Assembly (NCBI GenBank): GCA_002167285.1
Contig: NHDG01000060.1
Span: 6,208-70,207, forward strand
DNA: 64,000 nt
DNA from: Planctomycetia bacterium TMED53
GTDB taxonomy: Bacteria; Planctomycetota; UBA8108; UBA1146
Reading direction: 5' to 3'
Shown here: positions 13,108 to 61,550 of the stretch, piece after piece
Layout: each line of letters begins with the position of its first letter
Position numbering within the stretch: the first letter of the stretch is position 1
Position numbers and translations under genes: made by a program
The notes under the pieces: generated by a model
Told to the model about the DNA's origin: nothing
The model's database searches: none
What the model saw: only the letters and a program-made list of their open reading frames with translations

Positions 13108-13166
13108 TCCCTGGGCTGGAGTGAATCATCATTATAAGCCACGGTGACTGTCCGGGAATGCTCTGT

Positions 13167-13856: not shown

Positions 13857-14024
13857 GACTGGTCGACTCCTTCATGGCGGCTTCCTAATTTCCACAATTT
13901 GAGCCAGTTTTGTCAATAGAGTCTGCAGATGTGTTGGTTTAAGGCCAATATGGAGGGGATCCTTGAGGACTAGAGCACGAAGTTGCGATCTTTATGGCTA
14001 CAGTTTTCAGGATCATAGAGGAGT

Positions 14025-22930: not shown

Positions 22931-23041
22931 TTGCCGAGTCGCCGATTTATTGACATGGGATTTTTGCTCCAATGATATCCTAGGGGATATGAACTTCATG
23001 ATCGGTGAAGTTCGGGGAAGATGGAGTTGGAGAGTGATCCC

Positions 23042-24868
23042 ATGTCGAGTTCTATCCTGAGAAAACTGTTCACCACCCTTTGGATGATCCCTCTACTTTC
23101 TGTAGTCGGTGCAGGTTGGACCCCTCTTCTGGGGCAGAATATCAACTTGGAATTGACCACAACTACAACCACCGTCGCACCAGGAGAAACCTTCTTGGTC
23201 GATCTCACAGTTGACAATTCTGGAGGATTCTCTGTTCGAGGGCTCCAGCATGTCATCTCTTGGGACTCTGCTTTTCTTCGGTTGACGGCTCTTCAGCTAC
23301 CCGGGGAGCTTGCGGGTTCCCCAACCCCAGAAATCCTCGTTTGGAATGCTCCACAGCCCACCGGAACCGGTGGAGATCAGGGGTGTAGTACTTGGTGGGA
23401 TGGAAGTGGTATTGAAGCTTTAAGTCTTGGGTTGATCTTGGAAGAGACCAGCTCCGACGAGATCATCCCTCTGGCCCAAATGGAGTTTCGTGTCATCGGT
23501 AGTGCTATGAACGGAGATACCACACTGACGACACCAGATCCTGATTTGACTTGTGGTTGGATCGGATCGATCATCACTGATCCGCAAGGAGCTGTGCTTC
23601 CGACGGAGACTGACGTGTTGGAGCTTTCGGTTAGTGACGTTCCCAGGCCTACTCAGTTCAGCTGTGGGGAGGCCTCCCAAACGGTGTATTTGAGTTGGCA
23701 GGAACCTGTCAGCTACTCAACTGTGAAAATCGCCAGGGATGGTGTTCTTATCGCTGAGCTTCCAGGGGGAACTCAGAGTTATGAGGATCCAAATGCGACC
23801 CTTGGAGCAGAGCTGAATTACAGTTTGCAGGGGGTACTCTCCAATGTCTCGTCCCCTGAGGTCTCATGCCAGGTGACAGTTGATGGCTTACTCGAAGCGC
23901 CAATGAATCTCGAATGTTTCGATAATGGCGGAGCTGTATTACTGACTTGGGAGAACCCTCTCTCTTACGATCAGATAGATGTTTTTCGCCAAGGCTCTCT
24001 TTTGACGACATTGACTTCGAATGCGACCAGCTTCAGTGATGACCAACCGATCACTGGGCAAAGCGTGGATTACTTTCTGAGGGGATCTCTCGAAGGAGTC
24101 TTCAGTAGTACTGATACGTGTCAAATTTCTCTGCCAATTCCGCAAGTCCTCTTTATTAGAGGAGACGTCAATAGCGATGGGGAATTGAATCTGGTTGACC
24201 CCGTAACCACACTTCAGTTCCTGTTTGTTTCGGGTGATATGCCATGCGCTTCTGCTGCGGACTTCAACGACGACGGTAATCTGGATCTGGCCGATGCTGT
24301 CAACTTGTTGGCATACCAGTTCACGGGTGGAATGAGCCCTGCAGCGCCCTTCCCAATGGCAGGATTCGATCCCACTCCAGATTCTTTAGGTTGCGATGTC
24401 GGCTGCTTTGACTCCACTTGTGGCGCGGGAATCCCCGGTGACGAATGCAGCGGTGCCATCGATATCGGTCTTGGAACAACTCCATTTGATACCTCTGCGA
24501 TGACTGATTCACCTGAGCCGTACGATGATCTCGGGTGTGAAGGTACTCTTCTGGGGTTGATGTACTCTGATATTTGGTTTGATTTCACTGCTCCTTCAAC
24601 GGGGCTTGCAACAATCTCACTCTGCTCTTCAGAAGTTGAATTCGACTCAGACTTGGTGATTTACAGCGGGAGCTGTAGTCAGTTGACCCAAGTGGCCTGT
24701 AATGGCGATGGCGTTGATGCGCAAGGGCAAGCTTGTCCAGATTTCACTTCGAGGATCAGTGGTCTACCGATGACCGCAGGCGAGAGCTTCCTGATTCGTG
24801 TGGGTGGATTTGATTCTGTGGGACAAGGCGAGTCAGGGCCGGGATCGATTACAGTGACCATCGACTAA
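23042..24868 (+). CDS. Secreted multidomain protein: cohesin-like, 2 x Fn3-like, dockerin-like and a Cys-rich C-terminal domain
   Basis: Signal peptide MSSSILRKLFTTLWMIPLLSVVGAG. Cohesin-like APGETFLVDLTVDNSGGFSVRGLQHVISWD. Two ~85-aa repeats (..VYLSWQEPVSYSTVKIARDG.. / ..VLLTWENPLSYDQIDVFRQG..). Dockerin-like FIRGDVNSDGELNLVD...DFNDDGNLDLADAVNLL. Confidence 0.6.
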   Translation: MSSSILRKLFTTLWMIPLLSVVGAGWTPLLGQNINLELTTTTTTVAPGETFLVDLTVDNSGGFSVRGLQHVISWDSAFLRLTALQLPGELAGSPTPEILVWNAPQPTGTGGDQGCSTWWDGSGIEALSLGLILEETSSDEIIPLAQMEFRVIGSAMNGDTTLTTPDPDLTCGWIGSIITDPQGAVLPTETDVLELSVSDVPRPTQFSCGEASQTVYLSWQEPVSYSTVKIARDGVLIAELPGGTQSYEDPNATLGAELNYSLQGVLSNVSSPEVSCQVTVDGLLEAPMNLECFDNGGAVLLTWENPLSYDQIDVFRQGSLLTTLTSNATSFSDDQPITGQSVDYFLRGSLEGVFSSTDTCQISLPIPQVLFIRGDVNSDGELNLVDPVTTLQFLFVSGDMPCASAADFNDDGNLDLADAVNLLAYQFTGGMSPAAPFPMAGFDPTPDSLGCDVGCFDSTCGAGIPGDECSGAIDIGLGTTPFDTSAMTDSPEPYDDLGCEGTLLGLMYSDIWFDFTAPSTGLATISLCSSEVEFDSDLVIYSGSCSQLTQVACNGDGVDAQGQACPDFTSRISGLPMTAGESFLIRVGGFDSVGQGESGPGSITVTID

Positions 24869-25598
24869 GGTTTACCTCTTCTGGGTCCCTCGTCACGATT
24901 CGTGCTTTGCTTCCGCAAAACACGATGGCAGAACGCATGTCATGCCCCTCAGTGTCAGCAATGTATCGCCATTTATTCTCGCCGATCTCTGGTAGTTCAG
25001 ATTTGATAGGTCCCTCGAGTATTTCCGCATTCGGTTCCCCTGAAAAGTGGCGTAGGGGCAGAGTCATTCCAGCGCCATGAGCTTTTACCATCGCTTCTTT
25101 TTGTACCCAGAGGTGAAAGAATGAGGTTCTACGTTTCTCTTCTTCGGTCTTTGACCAGCCTTCCTGTTCTTCTATGGAGAAGCAGCGTTGTGCTAGATCA
25201 TCGATGGGGGATTCTTTCCTGATTCGTTCCAGGTCAATCCCCAATGGTGTTTGCTTGGAAACTGCCAGAATCGCGTATTCACCACAGTGGCTCAGATTGA
25301 ATTGGAGAGAGGCCTCTCCATTCAGGATAGGTTTGCCGTGGCCTTCTATCATCAAGGGAACCTCTGCGGGAGAGCAATCAAGGTAGTTGGCAAGGATTCG
25401 TCGCAATCCCAATCGAGATCGAAAAGAGCGTTCTCCCAATTCTGGAAAAATACCTTGATCGATTCGCGAGCGTTCCTCTTCTACGAGTTCTGCAAGATGA
25501 AAGTGAGGTTCGGCAGGGTTTCCACTGAGTGAGAACTTCCAAATTTCAATATCGATGGGGCTATCGGTTATGACGTTGGATTTAGAATCTGAATTCAT
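24849..25598 (-). CDS. pfaE: 4'-phosphopantetheinyl transferase (Sfp/PfaE type)
   Basis: GKPIL, QFNLSHCGEYAILAV, LGIDLE and FFHLWVQKEAMVKAHG (WxxKEAxxK) motifs. The ATG at 25598 overlaps the oleD stop as ATGA. The track start at 25712 would overlap oleD by 118 nt. Confidence 0.8.
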   Translation of the reverse strand: MNSDSKSNVITDSPIDIEIWKFSLSGNPAEPHFHLAELVEEERSRIDQGIFPELGERSFRSRLGLRRILANYLDCSPAEVPLMIEGHGKPILNGEASLQFNLSHCGEYAILAVSKQTPLGIDLERIRKESPIDDLAQRCFSIEEQEGWSKTEEEKRRTSFFHLWVQKEAMVKAHGAGMTLPLRHFSGEPNAEILEGPIKSELPEIGENKWRYIADTEGHDMRSAIVFCGSKARIVTRDPEEVNLSRWSL

Positions 25599-26599
25599 GT
25601 GGAGACGGACTCCGATTCGCGCAGTGAAGATCGCAGGTGCTTCATTCCTTCTTCTGTGGAGACTTTTGGAACCCAATCTAAATCTCTTTTTGCGGCCGAT
25701 AGATCGAACCAATGACTGGTCGATTGCTGTCGAACAACGAATCGGGTGACCGGTGGTTCTCCGTTGAAGAAGGGAGTTTTGTACAGCGATTCAATCAGCC
25801 AGCCTGCGAAGCGAGCGACTGCTGGAGGCAACGTGGGTCGAATCAACGGTAGCCCCTCGCACTCCAGGAATTGCTGAATCAAATCTTCTGGGGCAATCGG
25901 TTCACCATTAGAGATGAAGTATGCTTTGCCTCTGCATGCGGGATTTGAATCCAATTTTTCCAAAGCACAAATGTGAGCATCGATCGCATTGTCGATGTAG
26001 CAAGCATCAATTTTCATCCCCGGACGACGCACGAGTTTCAGTTTATTGTTCCGAGCTCTATCGATGATCCTGGGAAACAGATGGCGATCACCGGGGCCCC
26101 ATACGAGATGCGGGCGCAATGCGATGGTTTTCAATTGTTCATCATTGGCGGAGAGCACCGCGCCTTCGGCGAGAGCTTTTGTTCGCGGATAGTCGGCCAA
26201 GAAATGGTCAGGGTAGGGTTCTGATTCGTCGATACCATTCTGATCGCCTCCAGAAAAAACCACACTGGGAGACGACGTGAAGATCAACCTCTCGATGCCA
26301 TTTTTACGGCACGCATCGATCACATTTTGAGTTCCAATGACGTTGGTGCGTTCAAAATCTTCTTTGGGTCCAGAGATTGCCGCTAACGCAGCAACATGGA
26401 ACACCGCATCTACGTCACTGAATGCTGCCATCAATTGATCAAAGTGATCGAGGGATCCTCGGTAGTGAGTCCCTCCAAGATCGTTCAAATGTGGATATTC
26501 TCCCCTTTGAAAGGTGACGATTTCATGACCCATTTCGATAAGGCGTTGGGCAAGGCGGCCACCAATAAACCCACCAGCTCCAGTGATGAGGCACTTCAT
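25595..26599 (-). CDS. oleD: NAD(P)H-dependent 2-alkyl-3-oxoalkanoate reductase (3-beta-HSD/epimerase-type SDR)
   Basis: MKCLITGAGGFIGGRLAQRL Rossmann motif and YPRTK (YxxxK). 334 aa. Position after oleC with an ATGA overlap. Confidence 0.75.
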   Translation of the reverse strand: MKCLITGAGGFIGGRLAQRLIEMGHEIVTFQRGEYPHLNDLGGTHYRGSLDHFDQLMAAFSDVDAVFHVAALAAISGPKEDFERTNVIGTQNVIDACRKNGIERLIFTSSPSVVFSGGDQNGIDESEPYPDHFLADYPRTKALAEGAVLSANDEQLKTIALRPHLVWGPGDRHLFPRIIDRARNNKLKLVRRPGMKIDACYIDNAIDAHICALEKLDSNPACRGKAYFISNGEPIAPEDLIQQFLECEGLPLIRPTLPPAVARFAGWLIESLYKTPFFNGEPPVTRFVVRQQSTSHWFDLSAAKRDLDWVPKVSTEEGMKHLRSSLRESESVST

Positions 26600-28239
26600 G
26601 AAAGATATCCCCCGAGGCGGGTGGCGAGCACCTCCCTTTGAATTTTTGCATTGTGACGAATATCGACCGGGAAAGGGCCAGTGATCACTATCGCTTCAAT
26701 GAGAGTGGTCAAAGGATTTTGTTTTGCAAGTGTGGTCAGTTCATCGCGAATCTGCTGGTGAGGGATCTTCGTCGTCGGATCAGGTTCAACGCACAAGATC
26801 GGACGTTGGGAGCCGTAGGGTCCGACTCCGACAAGCGCGGTACGAAAGACACCTTGATGCCCCTCAAACATTCTTTCTGTGGCGACAGTGTCGATGGGCC
26901 CATGAGCGGTGTGGATTCTTTGACTGGTTCTACCCCTGAACCAGATATCCCCATTCTGATCTCGAGTACCGATGTCTCCGGTGCGGTGCCAGATTCGCCC
27001 ACTTGAATCCAAGTATTTGTGATCGTGATTGGCGGATTCATCAAAAAGGTATCCGCGGCTCACAGTTGATCCCGTAACCCAAATCTCGCCGACGGTGTCA
27101 GTAGGAAGAGGCTGATCTTCAGGGTTTCCCGATGGCTCAACGATCTGCATCTGCACTTCGGCGACTGGAGCACCGATGTATACGCCTTCTCCAGCGAGGG
27201 TGTGATCACGAGTTTCGAGAATCTTCTGATGACTTGTGTGGCACAGGGGGAGCCCTTCCGTTGCGCCGTATGGAGTTTCGATCGCTGTCTCAGCGGTAAC
27301 GTGCATAGCCAGGCGCTCGATCTCTTCGTGACGGGCAGGGGCGCCGGCACTGATGATTCTTCGAAGTCCTTCGATTTTTTGGCCTGAAGTATGTAAGTAA
27401 TCAGAAAGCGATTTTAAAAGCGCAGGAGAGGCGAAAAGATTGGTGACCTTGAAGTTTTTTATGAGATCCAGAAGGTGCTGGGGGTCTGCTTTTGCAGGCT
27501 TCGTGAAATCCATGACTGGAACTACAGAGGTCATTCCTATCGCTACTCCAAAGAGTCCGAAGAGTGGGAATGTTGGAAGATCTACCTCTCCGGGTGAAAG
27601 CTGGTGACAGCGAGCGAGAGCTTCGACTTGGGCTTCCAATTGTCCATGATGAGCCATCGCTCCCTTTGCTGGGCCAGTACTTCCGGAGGTGAACAAGATT
27701 GCAGCGAGTTCATCTCGATCGAGAACAGGCCCTTCGTAAGGAACCATGGAAGGGATCTTTTTTCGAAGATCTGTCAGATGATAAGTCCCCGGAGGGAATG
27801 GACCCTCGCCGACTCCAAATCGGTGTTGAATCGTCGAGCGGCTCCAGCCCAAGAGAACTCTCGCCCAATGAGCCTTGCTGACTCCGACGAAGGCTTCTGG
27901 CCGTGCTCGGTCGAGGCATGATTTTAATCCGGAGATGCCTAGGCCTGGATCGACGAGGACTGGTGGGGCACCAATTCGCAACAATGCGAAGGTACACGCA
28001 AGAAATTCTCTTCCAGGTGGAACCATCAGCACCGTCCGCATTCCCCTGCGAATCCCACGTTGAATCAGAGCATGGCAAGTTTGATCGACGAGATGGTCTA
28101 ACTCTTTGAAGGTTCGCTCCTCAAGTTGACCATTTCGAAACTCCCTCACGGCAATTTGCTCTGGATGAGCTCGAGTATGTTGGCGTAAGAGCCTGTCAAC
28201 TCCTGCCTGTGGCTGAGCGAGAGGGGCGATTAAACTCAA
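26596..28239 (-). CDS. oleC: Olefin beta-lactone synthetase (AMP-dependent synthetase/ligase family)
   Basis: ILFTSGSTGPAKG, YGATEG and TGDIG adenylation motifs. An in-frame TTG at 28239 overlaps the oleB TGA (TTGA), giving 547 aa. The track ATG at 28365 would overlap oleB by 130 nt. Confidence 0.75.
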   Translation of the reverse strand: MSLIAPLAQPQAGVDRLLRQHTRAHPEQIAVREFRNGQLEERTFKELDHLVDQTCHALIQRGIRRGMRTVLMVPPGREFLACTFALLRIGAPPVLVDPGLGISGLKSCLDRARPEAFVGVSKAHWARVLLGWSRSTIQHRFGVGEGPFPPGTYHLTDLRKKIPSMVPYEGPVLDRDELAAILFTSGSTGPAKGAMAHHGQLEAQVEALARCHQLSPGEVDLPTFPLFGLFGVAIGMTSVVPVMDFTKPAKADPQHLLDLIKNFKVTNLFASPALLKSLSDYLHTSGQKIEGLRRIISAGAPARHEEIERLAMHVTAETAIETPYGATEGLPLCHTSHQKILETRDHTLAGEGVYIGAPVAEVQMQIVEPSGNPEDQPLPTDTVGEIWVTGSTVSRGYLFDESANHDHKYLDSSGRIWHRTGDIGTRDQNGDIWFRGRTSQRIHTAHGPIDTVATERMFEGHQGVFRTALVGVGPYGSQRPILCVEPDPTTKIPHQQIRDELTTLAKQNPLTTLIEAIVITGPFPVDIRHNAKIQREVLATRLGGYLS

Positions 28240-29144
28240 ACCAACCCTCCATAAACAGGTTGTCTGTTTCTGAACTTGCGAATGATGGGGAGTAGGATCT
28301 CCGGAAACTCGTCGAGGAGAAGGTGTCCGGCCTCGGGCCAACGATGAATCTCTGCATTCGGCCACAAGGTATTCCAGTGGTGTAAAAAGTCTGTATTGAA
28401 GACTGGATCTTTTTCACCCCAGAGCAGGAGCAGGGGATGATTCCTCAGTCGTTCGAGATTTTTTTCAACTTCGTTTAACGATTCCCAAGAAGGATCTTCA
28501 CTACTGACAGGGATATCTTCGACAAATCGGTGAACCGCCAAGCGATCTTTGTAATTTTGGTATGGATACCGATACCCACTGCGCTCGGCTCGTGACAATT
28601 TTCTCGACTTCACACCGATCAACAAAGTGCCATTTAAAAAGGCATTGAGTCTTCGAATAAGCCACTCTCCCAGAGCTCCACGAGCCGGGCCTAGAATGGG
28701 TGGAAAGGCCATCCCTTGCTGGAGAGGGAAGGCTGCGGTGTTGATGGCAACCAAGTGTTCAAAGCGTTCCGGTTTTCTTCCAGCGACGCCAAATCCGATG
28801 GCTCCTCCCCAATCGTGGGCGATCAAAGTCGCCTCCGAATCGATGCCCAGGTCATCGAGCAACCTCTCCAAGTCGTCAATCCTGTCAGCAAGCCGATAAC
28901 TGTAATCGGCCTCGGAGGGTTTGTCTGAGAGTCCGCAACCTACGTGATCCACCGCGATGACGCGATTCATCGTTGAGAGACCCTGGATGAGATTTCTGAA
29001 GTGAAATGACCATGTGGGATTTCCATGAACGCAAATGATGGGCTTGCCTTCTCCCTCATCGACGTAGTTCATTCGGATCCCATTACCTCTATCCCAAGAT
29101 TTTCCGGTGAAAGGGTATTCCTCCTGGAAACTTCTCTGCTTCAT
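28236..29144 (-). CDS. oleB: Alpha/beta hydrolase, haloalkane-dehalogenase-like (beta-lactone decarboxylase OleB)
   Basis: HGNPTWSF and LIAHDWGG (Asp nucleophile) motifs. The ATG at 29144 overlaps the oleA stop as ATGA. An alternative ATG lies at 29156. Confidence 0.75.
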   Translation of the reverse strand: MKQRSFQEEYPFTGKSWDRGNGIRMNYVDEGEGKPIICVHGNPTWSFHFRNLIQGLSTMNRVIAVDHVGCGLSDKPSEADYSYRLADRIDDLERLLDDLGIDSEATLIAHDWGGAIGFGVAGRKPERFEHLVAINTAAFPLQQGMAFPPILGPARGALGEWLIRRLNAFLNGTLLIGVKSRKLSRAERSGYRYPYQNYKDRLAVHRFVEDIPVSSEDPSWESLNEVEKNLERLRNHPLLLLWGEKDPVFNTDFLHHWNTLWPNAEIHRWPEAGHLLLDEFPEILLPIIRKFRNRQPVYGGLV

Positions 29145-30199
29145 CGCCACTCCCATGCCAGCATTCGGCAGACCAGTCCACTGCCAATCCCCAAAAAGGC
29201 AACCTTGTGTCCACTTTGTAAAAACCCACGCTCTGCTGCCAACGCTGCAGTCATCGGTATCGATACGGTACCGATATTGCCAAGAAACGGAAAGGTGATG
29301 AAATCCTGGTCGGGCGAAATCCCTAGCGATGGCATGATTTCAAGACGGTGAGCTGACCCCACCTGATGGCAAATGGTTCGGTCTACATCGGATGGTTTCC
29401 AATACAGCTGTTCTAGAAATCTGTTCCAAGTTTTTACGCCCAGCTCGACCCCGTGGCGAAGTACTCCAATGGCATCTGTCTCCATGTATTCGAGACGCTC
29501 TGCAGGATCTTCGAGGTTAGGAGGAGTTTTGACTCCCCAGCGACAGAGTTGGTGCCACCGAGAATCACTTCCATGGGCAGAGCCGAGAAGGCGAGGACCT
29601 TTATCACTGATTCTACTCGACGTCAAAATCATCGCTGCGGCTCCTGATCCGCCGGTCCAAGTGGCCAGGGATTTTGTGAATAGATCCATATCAGGATTCT
29701 TTTCAATCTTGGCACAGGCGATCTCGACGATTTCCCTCGCACTTTCACAACTTACAACGACAGTTACTTCATGGCGTTGGGAGCGAATCGAATCTTCGGC
29801 GAGTACGACGGCATCGATGGCTCCCAAGCATGCGTTCGATAGATCATGAAGTTCGACATGGTCACCTGCACCAAGATGGTGAGCCACAGAGCAGGCGGTT
29901 GCGGGTTCAAATCCTTCTCGGCAAACGCCAGCGTATATGATTCGATCGACCGCCGAGATATCCATTCCCGCCCGATCCAGCGCCTTGCTCACCGCTCGAG
30001 CTGACATTTCTGATATTGAGGTATTCCGGTTCCACCAGCGGCGTTCTTTGACCCCGGTCAATTGTTCGATTTGCCCATTGGGAATCCCGAGTCGTTTCCA
30101 GGTGGAACTCATCATCTGTTCGATTTCGACACTGGTGACAACACAGGGTGCCATCTCTATTCCAGTGGCTGCCAGATGTAGTTCGGGGATCGAGGTCAT
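29141..30199 (-). CDS. oleA: OleA thiolase (FabH-like, non-decarboxylative head-to-head Claisen condensing enzyme)
   Basis: Strings close to my recollection of Xanthomonas OleA: DLSNACLGA (active Cys), GGSGAAAMIL, WHQLCRWG, CHQVGSAH, GNIGTVSIP and FLGIGSGLVCRMLAWEW. ATGA overlap with the upstream PKS gene. Confidence 0.85.
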   Translation of the reverse strand: MTSIPELHLAATGIEMAPCVVTSVEIEQMMSSTWKRLGIPNGQIEQLTGVKERRWWNRNTSISEMSARAVSKALDRAGMDISAVDRIIYAGVCREGFEPATACSVAHHLGAGDHVELHDLSNACLGAIDAVVLAEDSIRSQRHEVTVVVSCESAREIVEIACAKIEKNPDMDLFTKSLATWTGGSGAAAMILTSSRISDKGPRLLGSAHGSDSRWHQLCRWGVKTPPNLEDPAERLEYMETDAIGVLRHGVELGVKTWNRFLEQLYWKPSDVDRTICHQVGSAHRLEIMPSLGISPDQDFITFPFLGNIGTVSIPMTAALAAERGFLQSGHKVAFLGIGSGLVCRMLAWEWR

Positions 30200-37047: not shown

Positions 37048-40000
37048 TGCTGGGTCTCTTCCGAAAGTTCTTGCTGTTGGAATGCCTCCACCAGGGCAGC
37101 ATCGATGACGACTTCAGCGCCGGAGAGAGTCATAAGTGGCTCGCCATTTTCATTTAGAACTTCGGCTTTGGCGCTTGCCAATGATGTACTGAATTGCTCC
37201 AGTTCGACTCTGGTTTCAAGTTCGCCCATGCGAGCGTGCCCATGAACTCGAAGTTCAGATATTGAGCAGGGGAGACAAGGAGCGCCAACGGTATCGTTAC
37301 TCCAAATAATCAGTGCCTGAAAGATGGCGTCCAGTCGAAGAGGATCCAGCAGCCAGAATGGAAGTAATGGCGATCGGAATCCCTTACCAGGAGATGGCGT
37401 ACCAATAGCGGTAAAGGTGATCCCCTCATCGTTCATGCCCAGGATTTTATTCAGGCATCGGAAACTGTCACCGTGGAATAGAAGATCCCCATGGTCGGCA
37501 GCTGGAGCAGTTGTTCGTGCACTAATCTTCGAGGAGACTTGTTTTTGTTGTCCCAGAAGGACTTCCGCTTTGGCGTGAAGTCGGGCTTCATGATCGCGGC
37601 TGCGAATTTCCACGGGAACAGAGAGTTGATCGCCATTGTAAGTGGGAGGACCGCTGAAAAACGCGAGCTGAGCGATTTCTCTCCCGCCGATGACGATTCC
37701 TTTCAGGACTCTGAAATTGCTGATGCCAATAAAGTCGAGACCCGGGTTCCGATGTGCGGCTACCTGGGCGCACCACTCAACCAGTAAGGCGGCAGGAATT
37801 ACTGCACGACCTTGAAGGACATGATCACGAAGTGTTGGGTCACTCTCACAGGAGATATCGAGTGCCAATTGCTCTTCCCATGGGATCTCTGAAGAAATCG
37901 CAGGTTGTTGGGAAGGTACGACAGCAGGTTTGGAAATTTCCTTGCGAGTGACCTTCGGGCCAGGGAACTCCCCAATCTCATGTAGGAAGTCATGATGAGT
38001 TCCAAAAGATTTCAGTGCGATGTGATGACAGTGCGCTTGGGATCGAACCTGAGAGACGAAATGATCGGCTCCCTGCGCTAAATCGATCAATCCCACTCCT
38101 TCTGAATGGAAGAGATCTCTGAGGCCGGAATCGACCATGCCGCCATCCCAAGGCCCCCAGCCGATGCTGTTTACGTGGCAGCTTGGCCGCTGTTGAGACT
38201 CTCTGATCGCCAGTTGGTTCAAAGTTTCGTTGGCTGCGGCATAGTCCGATTGCCCTTTTCGACCCAAGGTTGCCGTGGTCGAGGAGAAAAATTGAACCAA
38301 GTGGAGATCGTCAGTTGAGCAAAGATCGAGCAAGTGCAGAGCAGGATCCACTTTGGTTTGCCAAACCTTGACAAAATCTTCATCCGATTTGTCTACGATC
38401 CAACTATCTGCCAAAACTCCAGCGCCATGGATGATTCCTTTGACAGAACCATGACGCTGTCGTGCTTCATTGAGTACTGCTTCAAGGGAATCACGCTGGC
38501 GAACATCAACGGAGCGGTAGGTCACTTCGCAACCGCGGGATCTGAGTTGCTCAATTCTATGAAGGATCTCTCGCGATTGCCTGATCAGATTCGCTTCACC
38601 GCGAATGACAGCCGGAGATTTTTCTCTTGCGGCCAGCTCGAAGAGTTTCGCCTCCAGTGACTCATCGGGAACTCCATGAGCCCAGTTGGGTTCGTGGCCA
38701 GGCTCTGGAGTTCTACCCAGCAGATACAAAGCAGGACTCGAGTCACGGGTCAGCGCCTCCAAGCATTCAGCGGTGACTCCGCGGGCTCCTCCGGTCACGA
38801 TCAAAAGATCCCCTGAGTTGATCGGAGATCGACCAAAATGTTCTGGCTGGATCGCTTCTAGATACAACTCTTGTCGACCTCCTTGTTGAAGACCGACCCA
38901 GCGCTCTTCACCATGAAAGATCTCTTCAGTCACTTCTCGGGCGATCTTTGCAGGGGGAACTTCTACAGATTCAAGATCGATTCCGCGCACGACAAAGTCG
39001 GCCCATTCTCTGGCAGCGCAACGGGTCATGCCCAATAAAGCGCCTCCGAGGGAGGACTCACTAAGGTCGGCCCCTGAGCTTTGATCTGAAGAGATTCCGA
39101 AGTGTCCACCCAGTCGGGTGATGACGTGAAGTGAAGATTGGCCTTTGGGGTGCTGGCGGAGACGCTTTCCAGCCTCTCGTATCCAGCGGAATGCCTCTAG
39201 AGGTTCGTTTGAACCAGGTTCCAACGATCCAATCAGAATCATTCCGCCTAATTCACAATGAGGTGATTGGATCGGAGTGTTGTCATTCATACTCCAATGC
39301 CTGGCATCCACATTACGCTGGGAGAGTTCTTTTACAATTTCTTCTCTGAGGAGGGGATCACTTCCGATGACCCACCACTGCGCTTCTTTGTCGAGTTCGA
39401 GTTCTGTCGTAGTTTCCCTTTGGGGGAGTGTTCGAACTGCTGGTTTTGCGAGAATCAGTGGATTCGAGTTTGTGGCACTTGGAATGCTTGGTTCGGGAAC
39501 TTCCGAAGTGGTCGAGATCCCATCGGTTTGGTCATACCAACTGGAGATTTGTTGAATCGTTCGTAAAGTTGCGAGCTGATCGGCAGGGATAGCCGGTAGA
39601 TCGGGACGGTGCTGCCTCAGTGCTGAGAGAATCTCAACTCGCTTAATGCTGTCAATTCCCAGGTCTGATTCCAAGTCGAGTTCAACTCCAATGGCATCTT
39701 CCGGATATCCCGTTTTTTCAGCGATTACTGAGAGTAAGAGCGGAATCAGTATTGCAGATTCGGACGGCTCGGAGCTCTCGGAGGGAAGAGGAGTCGGCTC
39801 TATATTAGGCGCGGTTTCGACTGCGGCTTCGAAGGTTACCCCGGAAGTATTTGTTTCAGGTGATAAGGCTTCTACCAATTGGAGAATCGTGCGCAAGGAC
39901 CCCAGCTGCTCAGGTGGAATCGTCGGTAGATCACTTCGCTTTTGTTTCAGGGCAGAAAGTATTTCCACTCGTTTGATGCTGTCGATTCCCAAATCACCTT

Positions 40001-43000
40001 CAAGATCCAGGTCCGTGCCGATAGCATCCGTGGGATATCCAGTCTTCTCTGAAATGATCTCTCTCAGCAAGTCCGCAAGACGTGAGGTCGGTTGTGTCTC
40101 AGCAACAGTCAAAGTGTTGATGGGAGAATCGGTAGATCCAGGATCAATAGTGGGTGTGGGTTGGTTTGGCCCGTTGTTGGAAAGTTCACTCAATGATGGA
40201 GTTTCAGAGTAGTGATCGATAATTGCGGAGATGGTGCGCAGTGATCCCAGTTTTTCTGCGGGCAATGCTTCTAAGTCGGGTCGGTGTTGGCGCAAAGCAG
40301 AGAGAATTTCCACGCGTTTGATGCTGTCTATACCAAGATCTCCTTCGAGATCGAGGTGGATATCTATCGCGCTCTCTGGGTAACCGGTCTTTTCCGCAAC
40401 CACTTCGATCAGTAGATCTTTCAACGGATTTTGTAGGCTTGCTGATACTGTCTCTGTACGAACTTCGAAGCTGGAAGGCTCAGGTTCTCCCGAGGCAGCA
40501 TCTGTCATAGGTATCGCTGCCGCAGTATTTCCAGCAGGTAGATAATGATCCACCATTGCATTCAATGTACGGAGTGACCCCAAGATCTCTGGCGACAGTG
40601 TTGGTAAATCGGGTTGCTGTTGCCGGACAGCTGACAAAATTTCTACCCGCTTGATACTGTCGATTCCCAAATCAGCTTCTAGATCCATGGAGGGATCGAT
40701 CGCCTCGAGGGGGTACCCTGTTTTTTCAGCGACGACCTCTGTCATGAACTTCAGAAGCGGCATTCGCTCTGGGGCCGTTTCTGGGGTTGAAGACTTTTCA
40801 ATCGACTCCGAAGCAACCATTGATTCAGATTCGTTGAGCTTTGTCGGTGCCTCTTCAATCTCCGAATAATGGGAAGAGTGGCTAGTGGGAGGGCTTCCTG
40901 GATTCACGCTTCCTGAATTCACGGTTTCTGAATTCAAGGAGAGTGACAAGGCCTCTTCAGCATTCCGTTGTGAGCGATCCAGTAATTCTCTGATCTCCTG
41001 AGCCTGTTCGAGGAGATCCATCAAAGCTTCCTGCTGATCGAGCAAGTTCGATGAGGATTGAACTGTTACTCCAACTTCTTTTGAAGCGGTCAGCGGTAAC
41101 TCGGGTGGGAGATTTACTCGAGCGCTAGAGCTTGCAGGTAGATGGGCTGGAGGTCCGGGCACGGGTCGTGCTTCCCGAGATGGGAGTCCTTCTCCAGGGC
41201 GTAAGTTTGCTCCTCGCAGTGATACCGCTGGACCTTTTCCTGTTACCTCTGGAGCCTGTGTTCGAGGTTTCCAAGTAGAAAGTTGGATGGGGTAACCCCT
41301 GCTTGCGATGACGGCAACAGTCCTCGCCAAAGCCCGAGAGTCTTCTTCACTTCCATCGATACTTTGAACCGTGATATTTCCCGGATGGGAAGCAGTGATG
41401 GATCGAATCAATCCACCGAGTACTTTCCCGGGTCCGACTTCAATAAATGTGGTGGCTCCTTGATTGACCATCGATTCAATCATCTCTTTAAAGAGCACCG
41501 GTTTTGCAATCTGGTGGGCTAGAAGAGAGCGGCAGGTTGTTTCGTCGAATGGATAAGGTTGCCCTGTTGAATTTGCGAAAACTTTTCCGGAGGGTTGGCC
41601 GAATCCGACTTTTTGCAAAACTTCTTCGAATGGTTGTGCTGCCGAAGCCACTTTGCTGGAGTGAAAAGCAGCGGAAACAGGAAGAGGGATACAGCGGATC
41701 CCCCGACTCTCAAGAAGTGATTTTGCAGCTTCTATCGCATCGAAACCGCCAGAAAGGACCGCTTGTTCAGGAGCATTTCTATTGGCAACGACGAGATCTG
41801 GCCAGTTTTCTTGAACGAGTTTTTCGAGCTCATTCAGTGGAAGTTGAACGGCGAGCATGGTGCCAGCATCCATTCCGCCTGCTTCTGCCATCAGGCGTCC
41901 ACGGAAGTTGGACAGTTGATGGAAATCAGATTCGCTGATGGAGCCGCTGGCAGCCAGGGCTGTCAGTTCACCATATGAGTGCCCTGCAAAGAGGTCGGCT
42001 TGAACTCCCAATCCGGTCAAAATTCGGAAACAGCCCAGGCTGACGGCTCCGATGGCAGGTTGTGCCACCTCTGTTCTTCGCAACTGCTCATCCAGGGAGT
42101 TTTCGTCACTGTTCCAAGAATGTACGGGCCATATCTTGGCTGCCAATCCGGTTTCATTTTCGGGATTCCAGTAACTGGATTCTGCGGCATCCAGGGTTTC
42201 CATCATCGCCGGAAAACGGCAGGCGAGATTTCTTCCCATGTTGATTTTTTGGGATCCTTGGCCCGGGAATACCATGGCTAATGATCCCTGAACTGGGCCA
42301 TGATCTCGATCGATACCAGCCGGGAGTTGCCAACGAGCCGTTTCCTCTTGTGACAATTTTTGCAAGGCTTGATCGAGGAGATCAGCGAGAGAGCCAGCGC
42401 CCGAGTAGGTGATCAGTAATCGGTGCTCTGCTGTGTGTCGGAATGATTGTCGAGTTTCACGGGCCATAGTAGAAATGGAAGAAGTGGAGTGATCATCTAG
42501 CAACCTGCTTCGGAAATCTCGAATCGTTGCTGACAAAGCTTCTTTTTCATCCGCCGAAAATGCCAAAATTTCAGTGATTCCTTGCCAATCGGTTTCACTT
42601 CGCCTTGTGTTCGCTTCTTCAAGAACTGCGTGAAAGTTACTCCCTCCAAAACCGAAGGAGGAGACAGCAGCACGTCTGGGATATTCAGATGGGCGTACCC
42701 ATGGACGAGCAACCTCTTCCACATGGAATGGGCTGCTGGGATCGGACAAGGCTTCAAGAGGCTTACGAATCTTCAGGCTCGGTGGTTGAACTTTGTGGTG
42801 CAATGCAAGTACAGCTTTGATGAGGCCCGCTGCTCCTGCTGCTGCCTTGGTGTGTCCGATTTGAGACTTCACAGAACCCAGTGCCACGCTGCCAGGGGTT
42901 GTCCCTGCTTGGCGATAAACCTCGTCGAGAGCTTTGAGTTCCGTGGCGTCGCCGACAGAAGTTCCTGTTCCGTGAGCTTCGACCATACCAATCGTACTGG

Positions 43001-44057
43001 GTGACACATTTGCGAGTTGGTAGGCGTCATTCAGCGCTCGCTGTTGGCCGGGGGCAGTTGGGGCGTAGATTGCCGCTCCCTTTCCGTCGGAAGAAGTTCC
43101 GACGGAAAGGAGGTGGGCATAAATCTTGTCGCCATCACGAATGGCGTCTTCTGACCTTTTTAGGACGACAACTCCAAGACCTTCCCCAAGTACGGTTCCA
43201 TCGCCATTTGCGTCAAAGGGGCGAGCATCACCAGTGGGCGAAAGAGCTGGGGTTTTCGAAAAACACATGTACATAAAAATGTCATTGAATGTGTCAACTC
43301 CACCAGTCACGACTAAATCTGATTTACCACTCCGCAATTCCAGTGCCGCAAGATGGACTGCGGCGAGGGAGGAAGCGCAGGCGGCATCGGTGACACAATT
43401 GGTTCCGTGGAGGTCAAGGCGATTGGCGATTCGACCAGCGACGACATTTCCTAATAGCCCCGGGAAAGAGTTCTCTTGCCAATCGACATATCCCTCAGAG
43501 ATCTTTCGGACGACGTCCTCGGCGATCTTGTCATCAACTCCTGATTCCCTGAGAGCTTTCCACCACAGCGGATGACCAAGACGAGCCCCCAGGGGAATTA
43601 CTAATTCGAGTGCACCCGTGACTCCGAGAATCACAGAGGCTTTCCTGCGATCAAAAGTTTTATTGGCATCGTAACCAGCATCTGTCAGGGCTTGCCGAGC
43701 AGCGACGAGACCCAGTAACTGAGATGTGTCGGTCGCTTCAAGGTCCCTTGGAGTAATCCCATAGTCCAAAGGATGAAATGGAATCGGCGAGAGGAATGCT
43801 CCTCGATTGCCGTAGGTTCTGTCAGGAGAGTTCTTATCGGGGTCGTGGTAATCACCCTCAGTCCAATAACCCTCGGGGACTTGCTCGATGTGATCACGAC
43901 CTGAACGAAGTCCCGCCCAATATCCATGGCGATCTTGGCTTCCAGGAAAAAGACAGCCGAGGCCGACGACAGCGATGTCGTCGTGCGATCGATTTGGGGA
44001 AAGCGACGGATTCGCAGAATCCCTTTGAGAGGGAGAGGATTCGTTGGGGCGCGTCAT
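37044..44057 (-). CDS. pfaA: PUFA-synthase subunit PfaA-like: KS-MAT-4xACP-KR-DH(PKS type)
   Basis: 2337 aa. KS: DAACASSLAA (Cys codon ~43377-43379) and EAHGTGT. MAT: GHSYGELTA (~41971-41984). Four LGIDSIKRVEILSA ACP cores. KR: LIVTGGARGVTAE (~38779-38808). DH: LRDHVLQGRAVIPAA (~37791-37832). Confidence 0.9.
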   Translation of the reverse strand: MTRPNESSPSQRDSANPSLSPNRSHDDIAVVGLGCLFPGSQDRHGYWAGLRSGRDHIEQVPEGYWTEGDYHDPDKNSPDRTYGNRGAFLSPIPFHPLDYGITPRDLEATDTSQLLGLVAARQALTDAGYDANKTFDRRKASVILGVTGALELVIPLGARLGHPLWWKALRESGVDDKIAEDVVRKISEGYVDWQENSFPGLLGNVVAGRIANRLDLHGTNCVTDAACASSLAAVHLAALELRSGKSDLVVTGGVDTFNDIFMYMCFSKTPALSPTGDARPFDANGDGTVLGEGLGVVVLKRSEDAIRDGDKIYAHLLSVGTSSDGKGAAIYAPTAPGQQRALNDAYQLANVSPSTIGMVEAHGTGTSVGDATELKALDEVYRQAGTTPGSVALGSVKSQIGHTKAAAGAAGLIKAVLALHHKVQPPSLKIRKPLEALSDPSSPFHVEEVARPWVRPSEYPRRAAVSSFGFGGSNFHAVLEEANTRRSETDWQGITEILAFSADEKEALSATIRDFRSRLLDDHSTSSISTMARETRQSFRHTAEHRLLITYSGAGSLADLLDQALQKLSQEETARWQLPAGIDRDHGPVQGSLAMVFPGQGSQKINMGRNLACRFPAMMETLDAAESSYWNPENETGLAAKIWPVHSWNSDENSLDEQLRRTEVAQPAIGAVSLGCFRILTGLGVQADLFAGHSYGELTALAASGSISESDFHQLSNFRGRLMAEAGGMDAGTMLAVQLPLNELEKLVQENWPDLVVANRNAPEQAVLSGGFDAIEAAKSLLESRGIRCIPLPVSAAFHSSKVASAAQPFEEVLQKVGFGQPSGKVFANSTGQPYPFDETTCRSLLAHQIAKPVLFKEMIESMVNQGATTFIEVGPGKVLGGLIRSITASHPGNITVQSIDGSEEDSRALARTVAVIASRGYPIQLSTWKPRTQAPEVTGKGPAVSLRGANLRPGEGLPSREARPVPGPPAHLPASSSARVNLPPELPLTASKEVGVTVQSSSNLLDQQEALMDLLEQAQEIRELLDRSQRNAEEALSLSLNSETVNSGSVNPGSPPTSHSSHYSEIEEAPTKLNESESMVASESIEKSSTPETAPERMPLLKFMTEVVAEKTGYPLEAIDPSMDLEADLGIDSIKRVEILSAVRQQQPDLPTLSPEILGSLRTLNAMVDHYLPAGNTAAAIPMTDAASGEPEPSSFEVRTETVSASLQNPLKDLLIEVVAEKTGYPESAIDIHLDLEGDLGIDSIKRVEILSALRQHRPDLEALPAEKLGSLRTISAIIDHYSETPSLSELSNNGPNQPTPTIDPGSTDSPINTLTVAETQPTSRLADLLREIISEKTGYPTDAIGTDLDLEGDLGIDSIKRVEILSALKQKRSDLPTIPPEQLGSLRTILQLVEALSPETNTSGVTFEAAVETAPNIEPTPLPSESSEPSESAILIPLLLSVIAEKTGYPEDAIGVELDLESDLGIDSIKRVEILSALRQHRPDLPAIPADQLATLRTIQQISSWYDQTDGISTTSEVPEPSIPSATNSNPLILAKPAVRTLPQRETTTELELDKEAQWWVIGSDPLLREEIVKELSQRNVDARHWSMNDNTPIQSPHCELGGMILIGSLEPGSNEPLEAFRWIREAGKRLRQHPKGQSSLHVITRLGGHFGISSDQSSGADLSESSLGGALLGMTRCAAREWADFVVRGIDLESVEVPPAKIAREVTEEIFHGEERWVGLQQGGRQELYLEAIQPEHFGRSPINSGDLLIVTGGARGVTAECLEALTRDSSPALYLLGRTPEPGHEPNWAHGVPDESLEAKLFELAAREKSPAVIRGEANLIRQSREILHRIEQLRSRGCEVTYRSVDVRQRDSLEAVLNEARQRHGSVKGIIHGAGVLADSWIVDKSDEDFVKVWQTKVDPALHLLDLCSTDDLHLVQFFSSTTATLGRKGQSDYAAANETLNQLAIRESQQRPSCHVNSIGWGPWDGGMVDSGLRDLFHSEGVGLIDLAQGADHFVSQVRSQAHCHHIALKSFGTHHDFLHEIGEFPGPKVTRKEISKPAVVPSQQPAISSEIPWEEQLALDISCESDPTLRDHVLQGRAVIPAALLVEWCAQVAAHRNPGLDFIGISNFRVLKGIVIGGREIAQLAFFSGPPTYNGDQLSVPVEIRSRDHEARLHAKAEVLLGQQKQVSSKISARTTAPAADHGDLLFHGDSFRCLNKILGMNDEGITFTAIGTPSPGKGFRSPLLPFWLLDPLRLDAIFQALIIWSNDTVGAPCLPCSISELRVHGHARMGELETRVELEQFSTSLASAKAEVLNENGEPLMTLSGAEVVIDAALVEAFQQQELSEETQH
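39535..40775 (-). repeat. Four tandem ~330-bp coding repeats (ACP domains of pfaA)
   Basis: DSIKR-encoding cores recur at ~39640-39665, ~39971-39996, ~40315-40340 and ~40648-40675. The antisense shadow ORFs in the track repeat MLSIPxS...GYPVFS. Confidence 0.85.
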
Positions 44058-45766
44058 GAAGAATTCCTCACGGTATCATTGAAGTTCATGGGATAGGGCT
44101 GATTGCCAAGATTCGGCAACACAGGATCGAACCAGGATCCTGAGGGAATTTGGTAACCGTACCGAGTGATGTCCTGAGCTCGGGTACGAACTGCCGCTCC
44201 GTACATCAAAGCATGGGCAACGGTGGCGACCCGTCTTTCACCAGCATTTTCAAGAATGCTGCCTTGGACCCACTCATTGAATGCTCCCATCGCTGGTCCG
44301 CACCAAACTTGGTAATCAAGGGCTCTTTCTGGGTTTCCGCTATTGGCCCAATCAGAGGATTTGCCAAGGTACCAGCGGAAAATGAGGGCCATGCGATGAT
44401 GTGAGTCTGACTCTGCTCTCTCTACTTGAGCAGGCTCTCTTTCGAGGAAGAAGTTTCGTGTGTGATTCCACACCTCTTCCAGAGGCATTCGAAAGATTTC
44501 TTTTTCAATACGAGCACGATCATTGACCGGAATTTCATCGATAGACTGATGGCTGCGATAAAGGTCTAAGAGTCTTCGCGCACGAGTTCCAAACATGGTG
44601 CCTCTGCGTAAAACCTGAAGGTGTACGCCCATCTCGAACATATCGGATGCCGGCGCCATGATGACATCTGCAGGCCCGGCTTGGGCGAGTAGATCTTTGA
44701 CGACAGGACTGGTTCCCGATTCGACGCAGGCTTGGTGCACGGAACCGACCACCACATATCCAGCTCCTAGTGCAAATGCTGAGGCGATCGCCGAGGGAGT
44801 GCCGAGTCCGCCTGCAGCACCGACTCGAACTTGGCGGGCTCTGGGAAGGTTGACTGCGATGTTGTCTCGTAGGTCGCAAAATGCTGGCACCAACGTGGAG
44901 AGAGGGCGGTTATCGGTGTGCCCTCCAGAATCGGCTTCTGCGGTGAGATCATCGCAAATCGGCCACTCACGAGCCCACTGTGCTTGATCTGCGGTGATTT
45001 CTCCCCGTTCAAGAAAGCTGCGTACCCACTCTTCTGGAGCCGGGGAGAGGAATCTCTTCGCGACTTCGAGACGCGAAGCTTTTGCCATAATGGAGATTTG
45101 CGGAGTGACCTTGCCGTTGACGTCGCGTTGTAAGCTTTGAATCCGCAATTTGACTAATGGCTCGGTCAAGTCGAGGTACGCACTCGCTTCAACATGGCGA
45201 ACTTTACGCGATCCCAAAATACGAGCCACTTCTGATTCGATCGTCGGCTCTGAGGGGCTATGGATGAGATTGCACCCCCAGGATCCACCTGGGTTTCTTT
45301 GTTCCAACTCTTCTAAAGCTTTGATCACGCGATCGGGAGTTTGTCCTGCCGCACCATAAAAAGCCAAGTTTCCTTGATGGGCCAAAGCAGAGACTAGTTC
45401 GGTGCTGGCGATTCCATTTGCCATGGAGCCACCTACGTATGCCTGCTTCAGTTGGTGATCTTGAATAAACTCGCTGCTTCCTAATGCTGTGGGTGGAATA
45501 GGGGGCAGGTAACCTTGAATCTGATCAGCAGTGACGGATGAAGAAGCGAAGTGATCATTTTCAGAGTTGGAGGCTGTCGTGAAAATTTGTGGATGATGGC
45601 TCTGGCCAGCGATGAGCCAAGCGCTATTGAGATTGGAAAATACTTCAGAGAAAGACACTTCCCGGAGGGCTTGAGTTTGGTTCAGTTTTTGAAACAAAGA
45701 GGGCTGCTGAGGAGCACCCTGGTGGTGTTCTCCCTGACCTTCATTTCCACCGAACCCGGTTGCCAT
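44054..45766 (-). CDS. pfaD: PfaD-family enoyl reductase (FMN-dependent, nitronate monooxygenase-like)
   Basis: 570 aa with YVGGSMANGIASTELV, GAAGGLGTP and SGGHTDNRP-type TIM-barrel ER motifs. It is the first gene of the cluster and is ATGA-coupled to pfaA. Confidence 0.8.
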   Translation of the reverse strand: MATGFGGNEGQGEHHQGAPQQPSLFQKLNQTQALREVSFSEVFSNLNSAWLIAGQSHHPQIFTTASNSENDHFASSSVTADQIQGYLPPIPPTALGSSEFIQDHQLKQAYVGGSMANGIASTELVSALAHQGNLAFYGAAGQTPDRVIKALEELEQRNPGGSWGCNLIHSPSEPTIESEVARILGSRKVRHVEASAYLDLTEPLVKLRIQSLQRDVNGKVTPQISIMAKASRLEVAKRFLSPAPEEWVRSFLERGEITADQAQWAREWPICDDLTAEADSGGHTDNRPLSTLVPAFCDLRDNIAVNLPRARQVRVGAAGGLGTPSAIASAFALGAGYVVVGSVHQACVESGTSPVVKDLLAQAGPADVIMAPASDMFEMGVHLQVLRRGTMFGTRARRLLDLYRSHQSIDEIPVNDRARIEKEIFRMPLEEVWNHTRNFFLEREPAQVERAESDSHHRMALIFRWYLGKSSDWANSGNPERALDYQVWCGPAMGAFNEWVQGSILENAGERRVATVAHALMYGAAVRTRAQDITRYGYQIPSGSWFDPVLPNLGNQPYPMNFNDTVRNSS

Positions 45767-45925
45767 CGATCGCCCCCTGACTGCCTGGAACTTGCGAGCA
45801 GGAGAAGGCCTGTTCGCAATCGCTCAAGATACATCCGGTAAAGCATGGAAGCACCCAGATTGGGGGGTGTAGGGGCTGATTGGAGGAAATTTACCGGGAT
45901 TCGTCCCAGGAGCGGTTCAACCTCT

Positions 45926-48667: not shown

Positions 48668-48688
48668 TCAGACCTCAAAAATCAGACC

Positions 48689-50491: not shown

Positions 50492-51585
50492 TTGAAGACC
50501 CCTTGCCATTTCCCTGTTCCCATTAGTAACTCTTCCAGATCTTCTTCTATTTTTTGCAAGAGATCGGAAGGTCTTTGCCGACGTGAGTAAATCAGAAGCA
50601 ACCGTGCAAATGTAGACGCGGTCCAGGTCTTTAGTCTTTCACTTGGAATACCACTTTGCGCGAGCATATTCGAAATTCTGGAGGCGCATTCCAGCCAAGG
50701 GACTGGTAGTCCCTGAAGAGATCGCAGACGGAGATGAGCAATGATATTTCCTGCATCGAGGGCCGGATCAGAGATCGCCAGTAAGTCTAAGTCTAGAAGA
50801 GTTACTGTTGATTCTGATATCAAGACTTGCTTGTCGTGAAAATCCCTGTGGCAAACTACTGGTGGTATCTCATTTAAAGATTTCAAACGTTCGATCACCG
50901 TATCAACCAGCCTTTTTACACCAGTAGGGGGCGCAGCCAGAATTCTGTGAAAAACTTCGTCTCTTTTTTGTAAAATTTTAATCTCGTCTTTTGCTGAATG
51001 AGTGGGAAGAGTGTTATCAGCCTCACTCTTTGCCAACCAAGACAAGATGTCAACTATGCTATCGATGTGAGTGGAATCCCATTGCCCAGATTTCCACAAT
51101 TCATTGAGGCTTTTACCCTGGGCTTCTTTAACGGTGAGCACCAAATTTTTGTGGTCCCATTGAGTGATCTCTGGAATAGAAATCGAATTGTCTGGAGACT
51201 TTTTCGAGAGGTATTGCCAACGTTCGAGGACTTGGCGGTTCTTTCTGAACACTTTTGCGAAGCAATTGTCTCCTAGCCTGAAAATAGCGCGGCTCCCCAA
51301 GCGCCAAGCCAGTAGCTCCACGGAGATTCCATTTGTTATCCAATGATTAATCACTGAAGAAAGTGCCGGAAGTCTCCTGTCTTCAAGGGGGTGCTGTTCT
51401 TTGAGTTTTCCCTTTTCTGATAGGTGGTACCACTTTGTTGCGTTCTCTCCTGATTGCCCATGCAGGCAGTACCAGCCACCCTTTCGAGATTCTTCCACGC
51501 GGAGCCATGGCCCGGTGCTTTCAAGTGCATTGGCTAATTCAGGAATCAAGTGCTGGGTCCAAAGATCAGAATCTTGACTATTCAT
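50488..51585 (-). CDS. Aminoglycoside-phosphotransferase (APH)/choline-kinase-fold kinase, substrate unknown
   Basis: Catalytic loop CHRDFHDKQVLI and Mg-binding LLDLDLL. Confidence 0.6.
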   Translation of the reverse strand: MNSQDSDLWTQHLIPELANALESTGPWLRVEESRKGGWYCLHGQSGENATKWYHLSEKGKLKEQHPLEDRRLPALSSVINHWITNGISVELLAWRLGSRAIFRLGDNCFAKVFRKNRQVLERWQYLSKKSPDNSISIPEITQWDHKNLVLTVKEAQGKSLNELWKSGQWDSTHIDSIVDILSWLAKSEADNTLPTHSAKDEIKILQKRDEVFHRILAAPPTGVKRLVDTVIERLKSLNEIPPVVCHRDFHDKQVLISESTVTLLDLDLLAISDPALDAGNIIAHLRLRSLQGLPVPWLECASRISNMLAQSGIPSERLKTWTASTFARLLLIYSRRQRPSDLLQKIEEDLEELLMGTGKWQGVFK

Positions 51586-55898: not shown

Positions 55899-55900
55899 CG

Positions 55901-61546: not shown

Positions 61547-61550
61547 CGAA

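Follow-up and report, generated by a model that had tools for sequence, protein, structure and literature searches.

Gene Organization of the Locus

The stretch of DNA analysed here, a 64,000-nt portion of contig NHDG01000060.1 of Planctomycetia bacterium TMED53 (hereafter the window), carries at positions 24849–45766 of its minus strand eight consecutive intact open reading frames (ORFs), which run uninterrupted over 20.9 kb and unite the genes of a Pfa-type polyunsaturated fatty acid (PUFA) synthase with oleABCD and a 4′-phosphopantetheinyl transferase (PPTase). Gene families were assigned by Pfam and NCBIfam profile scans followed by motif inspection, and each of the identities proposed for these eight genes in an earlier note on this DNA was borne out at family level. 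The unit opens with pfaD (44054–45766), encoding the 570-aa enoyl reductase subunit of the synthase in an open frame with one start codon only. It is followed by pfaA (37044–44057), coding for 2337 aa with the domain order KS-MAT-4xACP-KR-DH and starting with an ATG within the pfaD stop (ATGA), and by a pfaC-like gene best described as a pfaBC fusion (30196–37047; 2283 aa; KS-CLF-AT-DH-DH), whose TTG start lies within the pfaA stop (TTGA). Then we find oleA (29141–30199), for a head-to-head Claisen-condensing thiolase of 352 aa; oleB (28236–29144), for a haloalkane-dehalogenase-type α/β-hydrolase of 302 aa, the presumed β-lactone decarboxylase; oleC (26596–28239), for an adenylating enzyme resembling olefin β-lactone synthetases (547 aa from the TTG at 28239); oleD (25595–26599), for a 334-aa short-chain dehydrogenase similar to 2-alkyl-3-oxoalkanoate reductases; and finally a pfaE-type gene for an Sfp/HetI-like PPTase (24849–25598; 249 aa from the ATG at 25598). 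According to the ORF coordinates, the sole gap of the unit consists of the 159 nt found 5′ of pfaD (45767–45925), the presumed promoter region.

The Pfa Synthase and its Phosphopantetheinyl Transferase

PfaD matches TIGR02814 over residues 93–530 with 568 bits (cutoff 449), and PfaA reaches 1443 bits with TIGR02813 (cutoff 1010). The Pfam domains of PfaA comprise a ketosynthase (KS), Acyl_transf_1, four PP-binding stretches, a KR and a PS-DH, and its motifs include DAACAS with the KS cysteine, HGTGT, the GHSYG of the MAT and four LGIDSI sites of acyl carrier proteins (ACPs). For the pfaC-like protein, Pfam reports two ketoacyl-synt stretches together with FabA domains. As there is a single KS cysteine in the whole protein, the second KS-like domain, which lacks the active-site residue, is a chain-length factor (CLF). 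Residues 1–696 align 1:1 with PDB 6RIW ('ORF10' in the entry), which we take to be a PfaC KS-CLF didomain. Further downstream, residues 984–1281 form an internal PfaB/FabD-like acyltransferase (AT); this region reaches 77 bits with the PfaB-family model TIGR02816, whose cutoff is 144, and keeps an intact GHSLG motif. Two FabA-type dehydratase His motifs are also present. As judged by inspection of its motifs, the Pfa synthase is intact.

The PPTase contains the Pfam domains ACPS and AASDHPPT_N and matches the HetI-type model NF042922 with 110 bits, below its cutoff. Enzymes of the PUFA type have been defined by the motifs P0 (hRxhLS), P1a (x[G/D]xP) and P1b ([F/S]NxSH) (PMC3098273). P1a (HGKP) and P1b (FNLSH) are found in the protein of the window, as is WVQKEA, while P0 is represented by a near-match only, LRRILA, in which Ala replaces Ser.

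The Ole Enzymes

The earlier note had named grouping of the OleA-like protein with FabH as an outcome that would refute it, and the comparison came out in favour of OleA. Among PDB entries the OleA structures from Xanthomonas rank first (159–166 bits), with FabH at no more than 67 bits, and the NCBIfam model NF006720 is matched with 388 bits (cutoff 285); a FabH paralogue is ruled out by these scores. Moreover, residues E98, C124, H278 and N308 align to the catalytic E117, C143, H285 and N315 of the Xanthomonas campestris enzyme (XcOleA), with a residue offset derived from a 358-residue construct. Across 34 aligned homologues, none of these four positions varies. OleB shows an Abhydrolase_1 domain (97 bits), and its top NCBIfam matches are haloalkane dehalogenase models (NF002938, 169 bits) whose cutoffs it does not reach, as is expected for a protein assigned to OleB. 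OleC scores 460 and 459 bits with the olefin β-lactone synthetase models NF045785 and NF045786, whose equivalog cutoffs are 850 and 900, and 561 bits with NF006754 (cutoff 478); it is thus clearly related to the curated Shewanella or Xanthomonas equivalogs but falls outside them. In the case of OleD, the 2-alkyl-3-oxoalkanoate reductase models NF042422 (371 bits) and NF042423 (368 bits) stay under the cutoff of 580 and are far ahead of the next NCBIfam match, HpnA (124 bits); the Pfam domain is 3Beta_HSD (172 bits). Such sub-cutoff scores show that the lineage of OleC and OleD has diverged from the Shewanella and Xanthomonas enzymes characterised so far.

Linked pfa and ole Genes in Other Genomes

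An OleA alignment was used to scan one genome per GTDB species, which yielded more than 589 matching loci. The 80 most similar (L001–L080) were taken with 10-kb flanks, a sample biased to the OleA subfamily of the window, and their gene content was established by tblastn with the eight window proteins. In this survey, which the earlier note had called for as a count of contiguous pfa and ole genes, the C-terminus of a PfaC homologue adjoins oleA directly upstream and on the same strand in 58 of the 71 loci with at least 1 kb of upstream sequence, with a median gap of 50 nt. The genes oleB, oleC and oleD follow oleA in 49 of the 58 loci having at least 5 kb downstream, and a PPTase comes after oleD in two thirds (32/48) of those with oleD and at least 6 kb downstream. 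The carriers belong to Planctomycetota, Phycisphaerae, Desulfuromonadales/Geobacteraceae, Desulfobacteraceae, Gammaproteobacteria, Elusimicrobiota and Verrucomicrobiales, together with one Gemmatimonadota metagenome-assembled genome (MAG); cultured planctomycetes with the same layout are Aquisphaera insulae and Singulisphaera sp. GP187 (L065, L076). A PfaD-anchored scan of metagenome contigs gave pfaD-pfaA-pfaC as the general order in the family.

Concerning the host, a Tara Oceans scaffold of 152 kb (L081; ERZ28654788, TARA_SAMEA2591128 scaffold_17) and a second contig from a marine metagenome each encode an identical PfaD protein, and MAGs of Planctomycetota or Planctomycetia supply the nearest OleA proteins (74–79% identity). 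Both observations indicate an uncultured marine planctomycete.

Some variation is seen in the ole block. Insertions between oleA and oleB measure about 1.26 kb in L016, L022 and L042, about 4 kb in L039 and about 8.6 kb in L064; inserts in this block belong to several gammaproteobacterial loci and to the cultured Geobacter sp. DSM 9736 (L163), where the order is PfaA-PfaBC-OleA-OleB-(one inserted gene)-OleC-OleD and the insert between oleB and oleC (12086–14569) encodes a Flg_new-domain protein. The gammaproteobacterial OleA is also some 50 residues longer (~399 aa). In a Desulfobacteraceae MAG (L050, 1–11029), PfaD-PfaA are followed by about 2.7 kb without a PfaC match and then by oleABCD, which could reflect an artefact of assembly or a variant that lacks pfaBC there.

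Comparison with Known Systems

The linked pfa-ole architecture is already published and widespread. Shulse and Allen (2011; PMC3098273) noted frequent linkage of ole genes to pfa-like clusters, defined a 'Type I' cluster, marked by fused pfaBC, in Geobacter, other Deltaproteobacteria and one planctomycete, and proposed that clusters of this type supply olefin precursors. Geobacter bemidjiensis Bem, a producer of C31:9, carries pfaD-A-B-C-oleA-B-C-D-pfaE in tandem (Yoshida et al. 2016, Mar Drugs, PMC4882568), and in Photobacterium profundum the pfa and ole operons are adjacent (Allemann et al. 2019, PMC6463001). A 2026 survey of PUFA-synthase hybrids in JACS Au does not mention ole genes.

The unit of the window most resembles that of G. 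bemidjiensis, with the enoyl reductase first, then PfaA, the PfaB/C unit, oleABCD and the terminal PPTase, all in the same order on the same strand, a pfaBC-type KS-CLF-AT-DH2 protein and a PUFA-type PPTase with P1a and P1b. The Geobacteraceae/Desulfuromonadales loci L051, L057, L079 and L163 have this order as well. However, G. bemidjiensis is an anaerobic deltaproteobacterium and the window comes from an uncultured marine planctomycete sampled by Tara Oceans, whose OleA is only ~47–49% identical to the Desulfuromonadales proteins. Moreover, several junctions of the Geobacter-type loci show gaps of tens to thousands of nucleotides, sometimes with inserted genes, in contrast to the 4-nt overlaps found throughout the window unit.

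With Shewanella and Photobacterium the likeness would lie in the enzymology, namely the conversion by OleABCD of a Pfa-derived 16:4n-3 chain into C31:9 (PMC6463001; Sukovich et al. 2010 as quoted in later papers), with OleA drawing its substrate from the Pfa ACPs (PMC6463001); both are predicted here from the genes. The layout is different: the pfa and ole loci are unlinked or form separate operons in those bacteria, PfaB is a separate protein and pfaD comes last, whereas in the window pfaBC is fused and pfaD comes first. In addition, their synthases are associated with a PfaT thioesterase and also make membrane eicosapentaenoic acid (EPA) or docosahexaenoic acid. The Ole part shares with X. 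campestris OleABCD (3ROW, 4KU5 and others) the OleA fold family, the catalytic Glu/Cys/His/Asn and the oleA-B-C-D order; it differs in a 13-residue insertion of OleA relative to XcOleA, and the Xanthomonas enzymes use acyl-CoA substrates derived from type II fatty acid synthesis (FAS II), without a pfa partner.

A Chain of Stop/Start Overlaps

At all seven junctions of the unit an in-frame start overlaps the preceding stop in a tetranucleotide: ATGA at 44054, TTGA at 37044, ATGA at 30196, ATGA at 29141, TTGA at 28236, ATGA at 26596 and ATGA at 25595. The earlier note had claimed an overlap of exactly 4 nt in every case. The tetranucleotides are indeed there in all seven, but the exact length is unprovable at oleB. 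The overlapping codon is the sole start in the open frame 5′ of the homology at pfaD/pfaA, pfaA/pfaC, pfaC/oleA and oleC/oleD, and longer alternatives exist for oleB (29150 and 29156), oleC (28365) and the PPTase (25712). For oleC the overlap start is the only one available in the relatives L002 and L005, and it is further supported by the NCBIfam OleC alignments, which begin ~16–24 residues past the TTG at 28239; for the PPTase the overlap ATG is likewise the only start available in L001 and L002. The alternatives of oleB, 6 and 12 nt upstream, fall in codons of the OleA C-terminus (LAWEWR*, with W351 invariant in alignment A1), so that conservation does not discriminate between them, and the oleA/oleB overlap is 4, 10 or 16 nt. 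The oleB ATG at the 4-nt overlap was found in all eight loci compared.

One of the overlaps is missing from automated annotation. The ENA gene call (L082, 9237; window 36975–37047) places the start of pfaC 72 nt downstream of the TTG, giving 2259 instead of 2283 aa. That start was rejected, as the protein would lose 24 residues that are covered, from residue 1 on, in the alignments to the KS profile and to 6RIW. These alignments, together with the conserved TTGA, lead us to prefer the TTG, and the ENA start is probably a mis-call that masks the overlap. The pfaA/pfaC TTGA is kept in L001, L003, L005, L006, L007, L084 and L086, and the pfaD/pfaA ATGA recurs in L084, L085, L086 and L095.

The pattern is not due to chance. 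In the seven related Planctomycetota loci L001–L007 (OleA identity of 63–77%), every junction consists of an in-frame NTGA; this was established by explicit inspection for in-frame NTGA, the automated junction table having under-called three junctions in L002, L004 and L005. Elsewhere in the window, approximately 4 of ~19 same-strand junctions are 4-nt overlaps, versus 7 of 7 in the unit. According to the junction table for the 80 sampled loci, the oleC/oleD overlap of 4 nt is present in 47 of 53 evaluable cases from at least six phyla, and the remaining junctions show it in only ~25–40% of cases. Across these loci the full chain is limited to the L001–L007 planctomycete clade and the window, with near-complete versions in, for example, L037, L046 and L070. 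This unbroken, conserved and gapless chain of 4-nt overlaps in a clade of marine planctomycete MAGs is the only feature of the locus that we have not found described, and it is a descriptive refinement of a known cluster.

Probable Co-transcription and Translational Coupling

A single mRNA very probably covers all eight cistrons, and their translation is probably coupled through the stop/start overlaps, as suggested by the conservation of the latter. A scan for sigma-70-like promoters detected none in the 159-nt region 5′ of pfaD, although this consensus may not suit planctomycetes, and terminator-like signals inside the unit did not rise above background; both scans gave no more sites than shuffled sequence and say nothing on operon boundaries. 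At the other end, the last 20 nt of the PPTase gene (24849–24868) overlap with the 3′ end of a convergent ORF of 615 aa on the plus strand (23021–24868), which leaves no space for a terminator between the two; the only match of this ORF is a weak one to galactose-binding-domain-like proteins.

A more far-reaching proposal is that in this marine planctomycete clade the overlap chain is under selection for fixed-ratio, co-localised translation that would assemble a physical Pfa-Ole megacomplex, in which OleA would draw acyl chains directly from the PfaA ACPs through a closed channel without release of PUFA. We regard this as a rather unlikely extension.

Predicted Pathway and Product

On the basis of homology, synteny and the literature, we consider it probable that the Pfa-like synthase feeds OleABCD in a dedicated pathway leading to a polyolefin of the C31:9 type. 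As outlined from established knowledge of the Ole pathway and the cited papers, the PfaE-type PPTase would convert the four ACPs of PfaA to the holo form, and PfaA, PfaBC and PfaD would then build iteratively on these ACPs a medium-chain polyunsaturated acyl chain, which in Shewanella is 16:4n-3. Two such chains would be condensed head-to-head by OleA to a 2-alkyl-3-oxo acid, which, after reduction by OleD, would be closed to a β-lactone by OleC in an ATP-dependent step; its decarboxylation by OleB would create the central cis double bond. For two 16:4 chains the arithmetic is that of C31:9, with 16 + 16 − 1 = 31 carbons and 4 + 4 + 1 = 9 double bonds.

This scheme, the gist of which the earlier note had advanced, agrees with the published proposals for the same cluster type and with the presence of n-C31:9 in planctomycetes, where the alkene is 'often present' and figures in species descriptions as a characteristic neutral lipid (PMC6995999, PMC3327967). 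It is also in line with the work of Allemann et al. (2019; PMC6463001), in which OleA mediates the link between pfa and ole in vivo by taking its substrate from the Pfa synthase. The identity and chain length of the product at this locus are predicted, and that the unit serves hydrocarbon synthesis rather than a membrane-PUFA pathway is likewise inferred.

Several points weigh against the scheme. The host is known from a metagenome scaffold alone, with product and transcript predicted from the genes, and neither chain length nor the number of double bonds is readable from sequence. OleC and OleD lie under NCBIfam's narrow equivalog cutoffs. The internal PfaB-like AT could also off-load free or lipid-bound PUFA, and a PfaT-like (hotdog-fold) thioesterase, an enzyme that supports optimal output in Shewanella and Photobacterium (PMC6463001), was sought among the other ORFs of the window and not found. 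Finally, 4-nt overlaps are common in other operons of this genome, so that a special coupling need not follow from them.

Of the explanations that depart from it, the closest keeps the pathway and changes its product. If the chain were not 16:4, a polyene of other length or unsaturation would result (for example C31:8, or C29 to C33), or synthesis might even stop at the ketone or the β-lactone. The co-occurrence of C31:8 with C31:9 in Desulfotalea (PMC2649909) and the 9–10 double bonds given in planctomycete descriptions speak for such a deviation, as does the divergence of OleC and OleD, and the domains of the synthase do not reveal how chain length is controlled. Nevertheless, n-C31:9 is the hydrocarbon reported both for planctomycetes and for G. 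bemidjiensis with its identical gene order, and with all four ole genes intact and syntenic a stalled pathway is improbable, which altogether makes a different end product unlikely.

It is considerably less likely that the unit has a dual role, with the synthase also supplying membrane lipids through its internal PfaB-like AT. There is a precedent in Shewanella, where one Pfa synthase gives rise to EPA and C31:9 and OleA competes for the intermediates (PMC6463001). The GHSLG motif of the AT is intact in the window protein, and PMC12895367 presents PfaB as a terminal acyltransferase by which the final PUFA product is determined. However, the fatty-acid tables of planctomycete strains containing C31:9 list no long-chain PUFA (PMC6995999, PMC3327967), and the union with oleABCD, conserved across phyla, argues for the olefin as the selected product. 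Least credible of all is an unconnected juxtaposition, in which the pfa-like genes would make another lipid such as the (ω-1)-hydroxy C30–C32 fatty acids, Ole would act on FAS II chains and the overlaps would reflect genome compaction: unusual long-chain hydroxy fatty acids of unassigned genetic origin do occur in planctomycetes (PMC6995999, PMC3327967) and the window has many 4-nt overlaps outside the unit, but the adjacency of pfaC and oleA in at least six phyla exceeds what shared ancestry of neighbours explains, the planctomycete hydrocarbon is polyunsaturated and not obtainable from FAS II products, and the olefin depends on pfa in Shewanella genetics (PMC3098273, PMC6463001).

With the C31:9-type pathway as the favoured interpretation, the locus would tie n-C31:9, an alkene that has long served as a chemotaxonomic marker of planctomycetes, to a concrete set of genes. 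It also adds an abundant, uncultured lineage from the sea to the known carriers of the tandem pfa-ole-pfaE cluster. Our understanding of the Pfa or Ole pathways is left unchanged. As a compact unit of 20.9 kb without internal intergenic DNA, it may also lend itself, as one convenient fragment, to making polyunsaturated hydrocarbons in a heterologous host.

Neighbouring Genes

Directly upstream of pfaD, a second tightly packed operon occupies positions 45926–58430 of the minus strand and encodes three glycosyltransferases, an MsbA-like ABC transporter, two APH-family kinases, an Alginate_exp-type outer-membrane barrel and a right-handed β-helix protein of 913 aa, which together probably form an export system for an exopolysaccharide or a glycolipid. 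This operon is likewise rich in 4-nt overlaps. It was considered as a part of the pfa-ole unit and set aside as a neighbour in view of its 159-nt separation from pfaD. The kinase, porin and β-helix genes adjoin pfaD in five related loci (L083–L086 and L095), with β-helix identity down to 29%, and this position of the operon is kept within the planctomycete clade only. No tRNA genes and, at gathering thresholds, no Rfam families were found in the whole 64-kb window. Still further upstream (58687–63731, minus strand), we find genes for a sigma-54-dependent response regulator, a HAMP histidine kinase and a second β-helix protein, which may regulate the glycosyltransferase operon.

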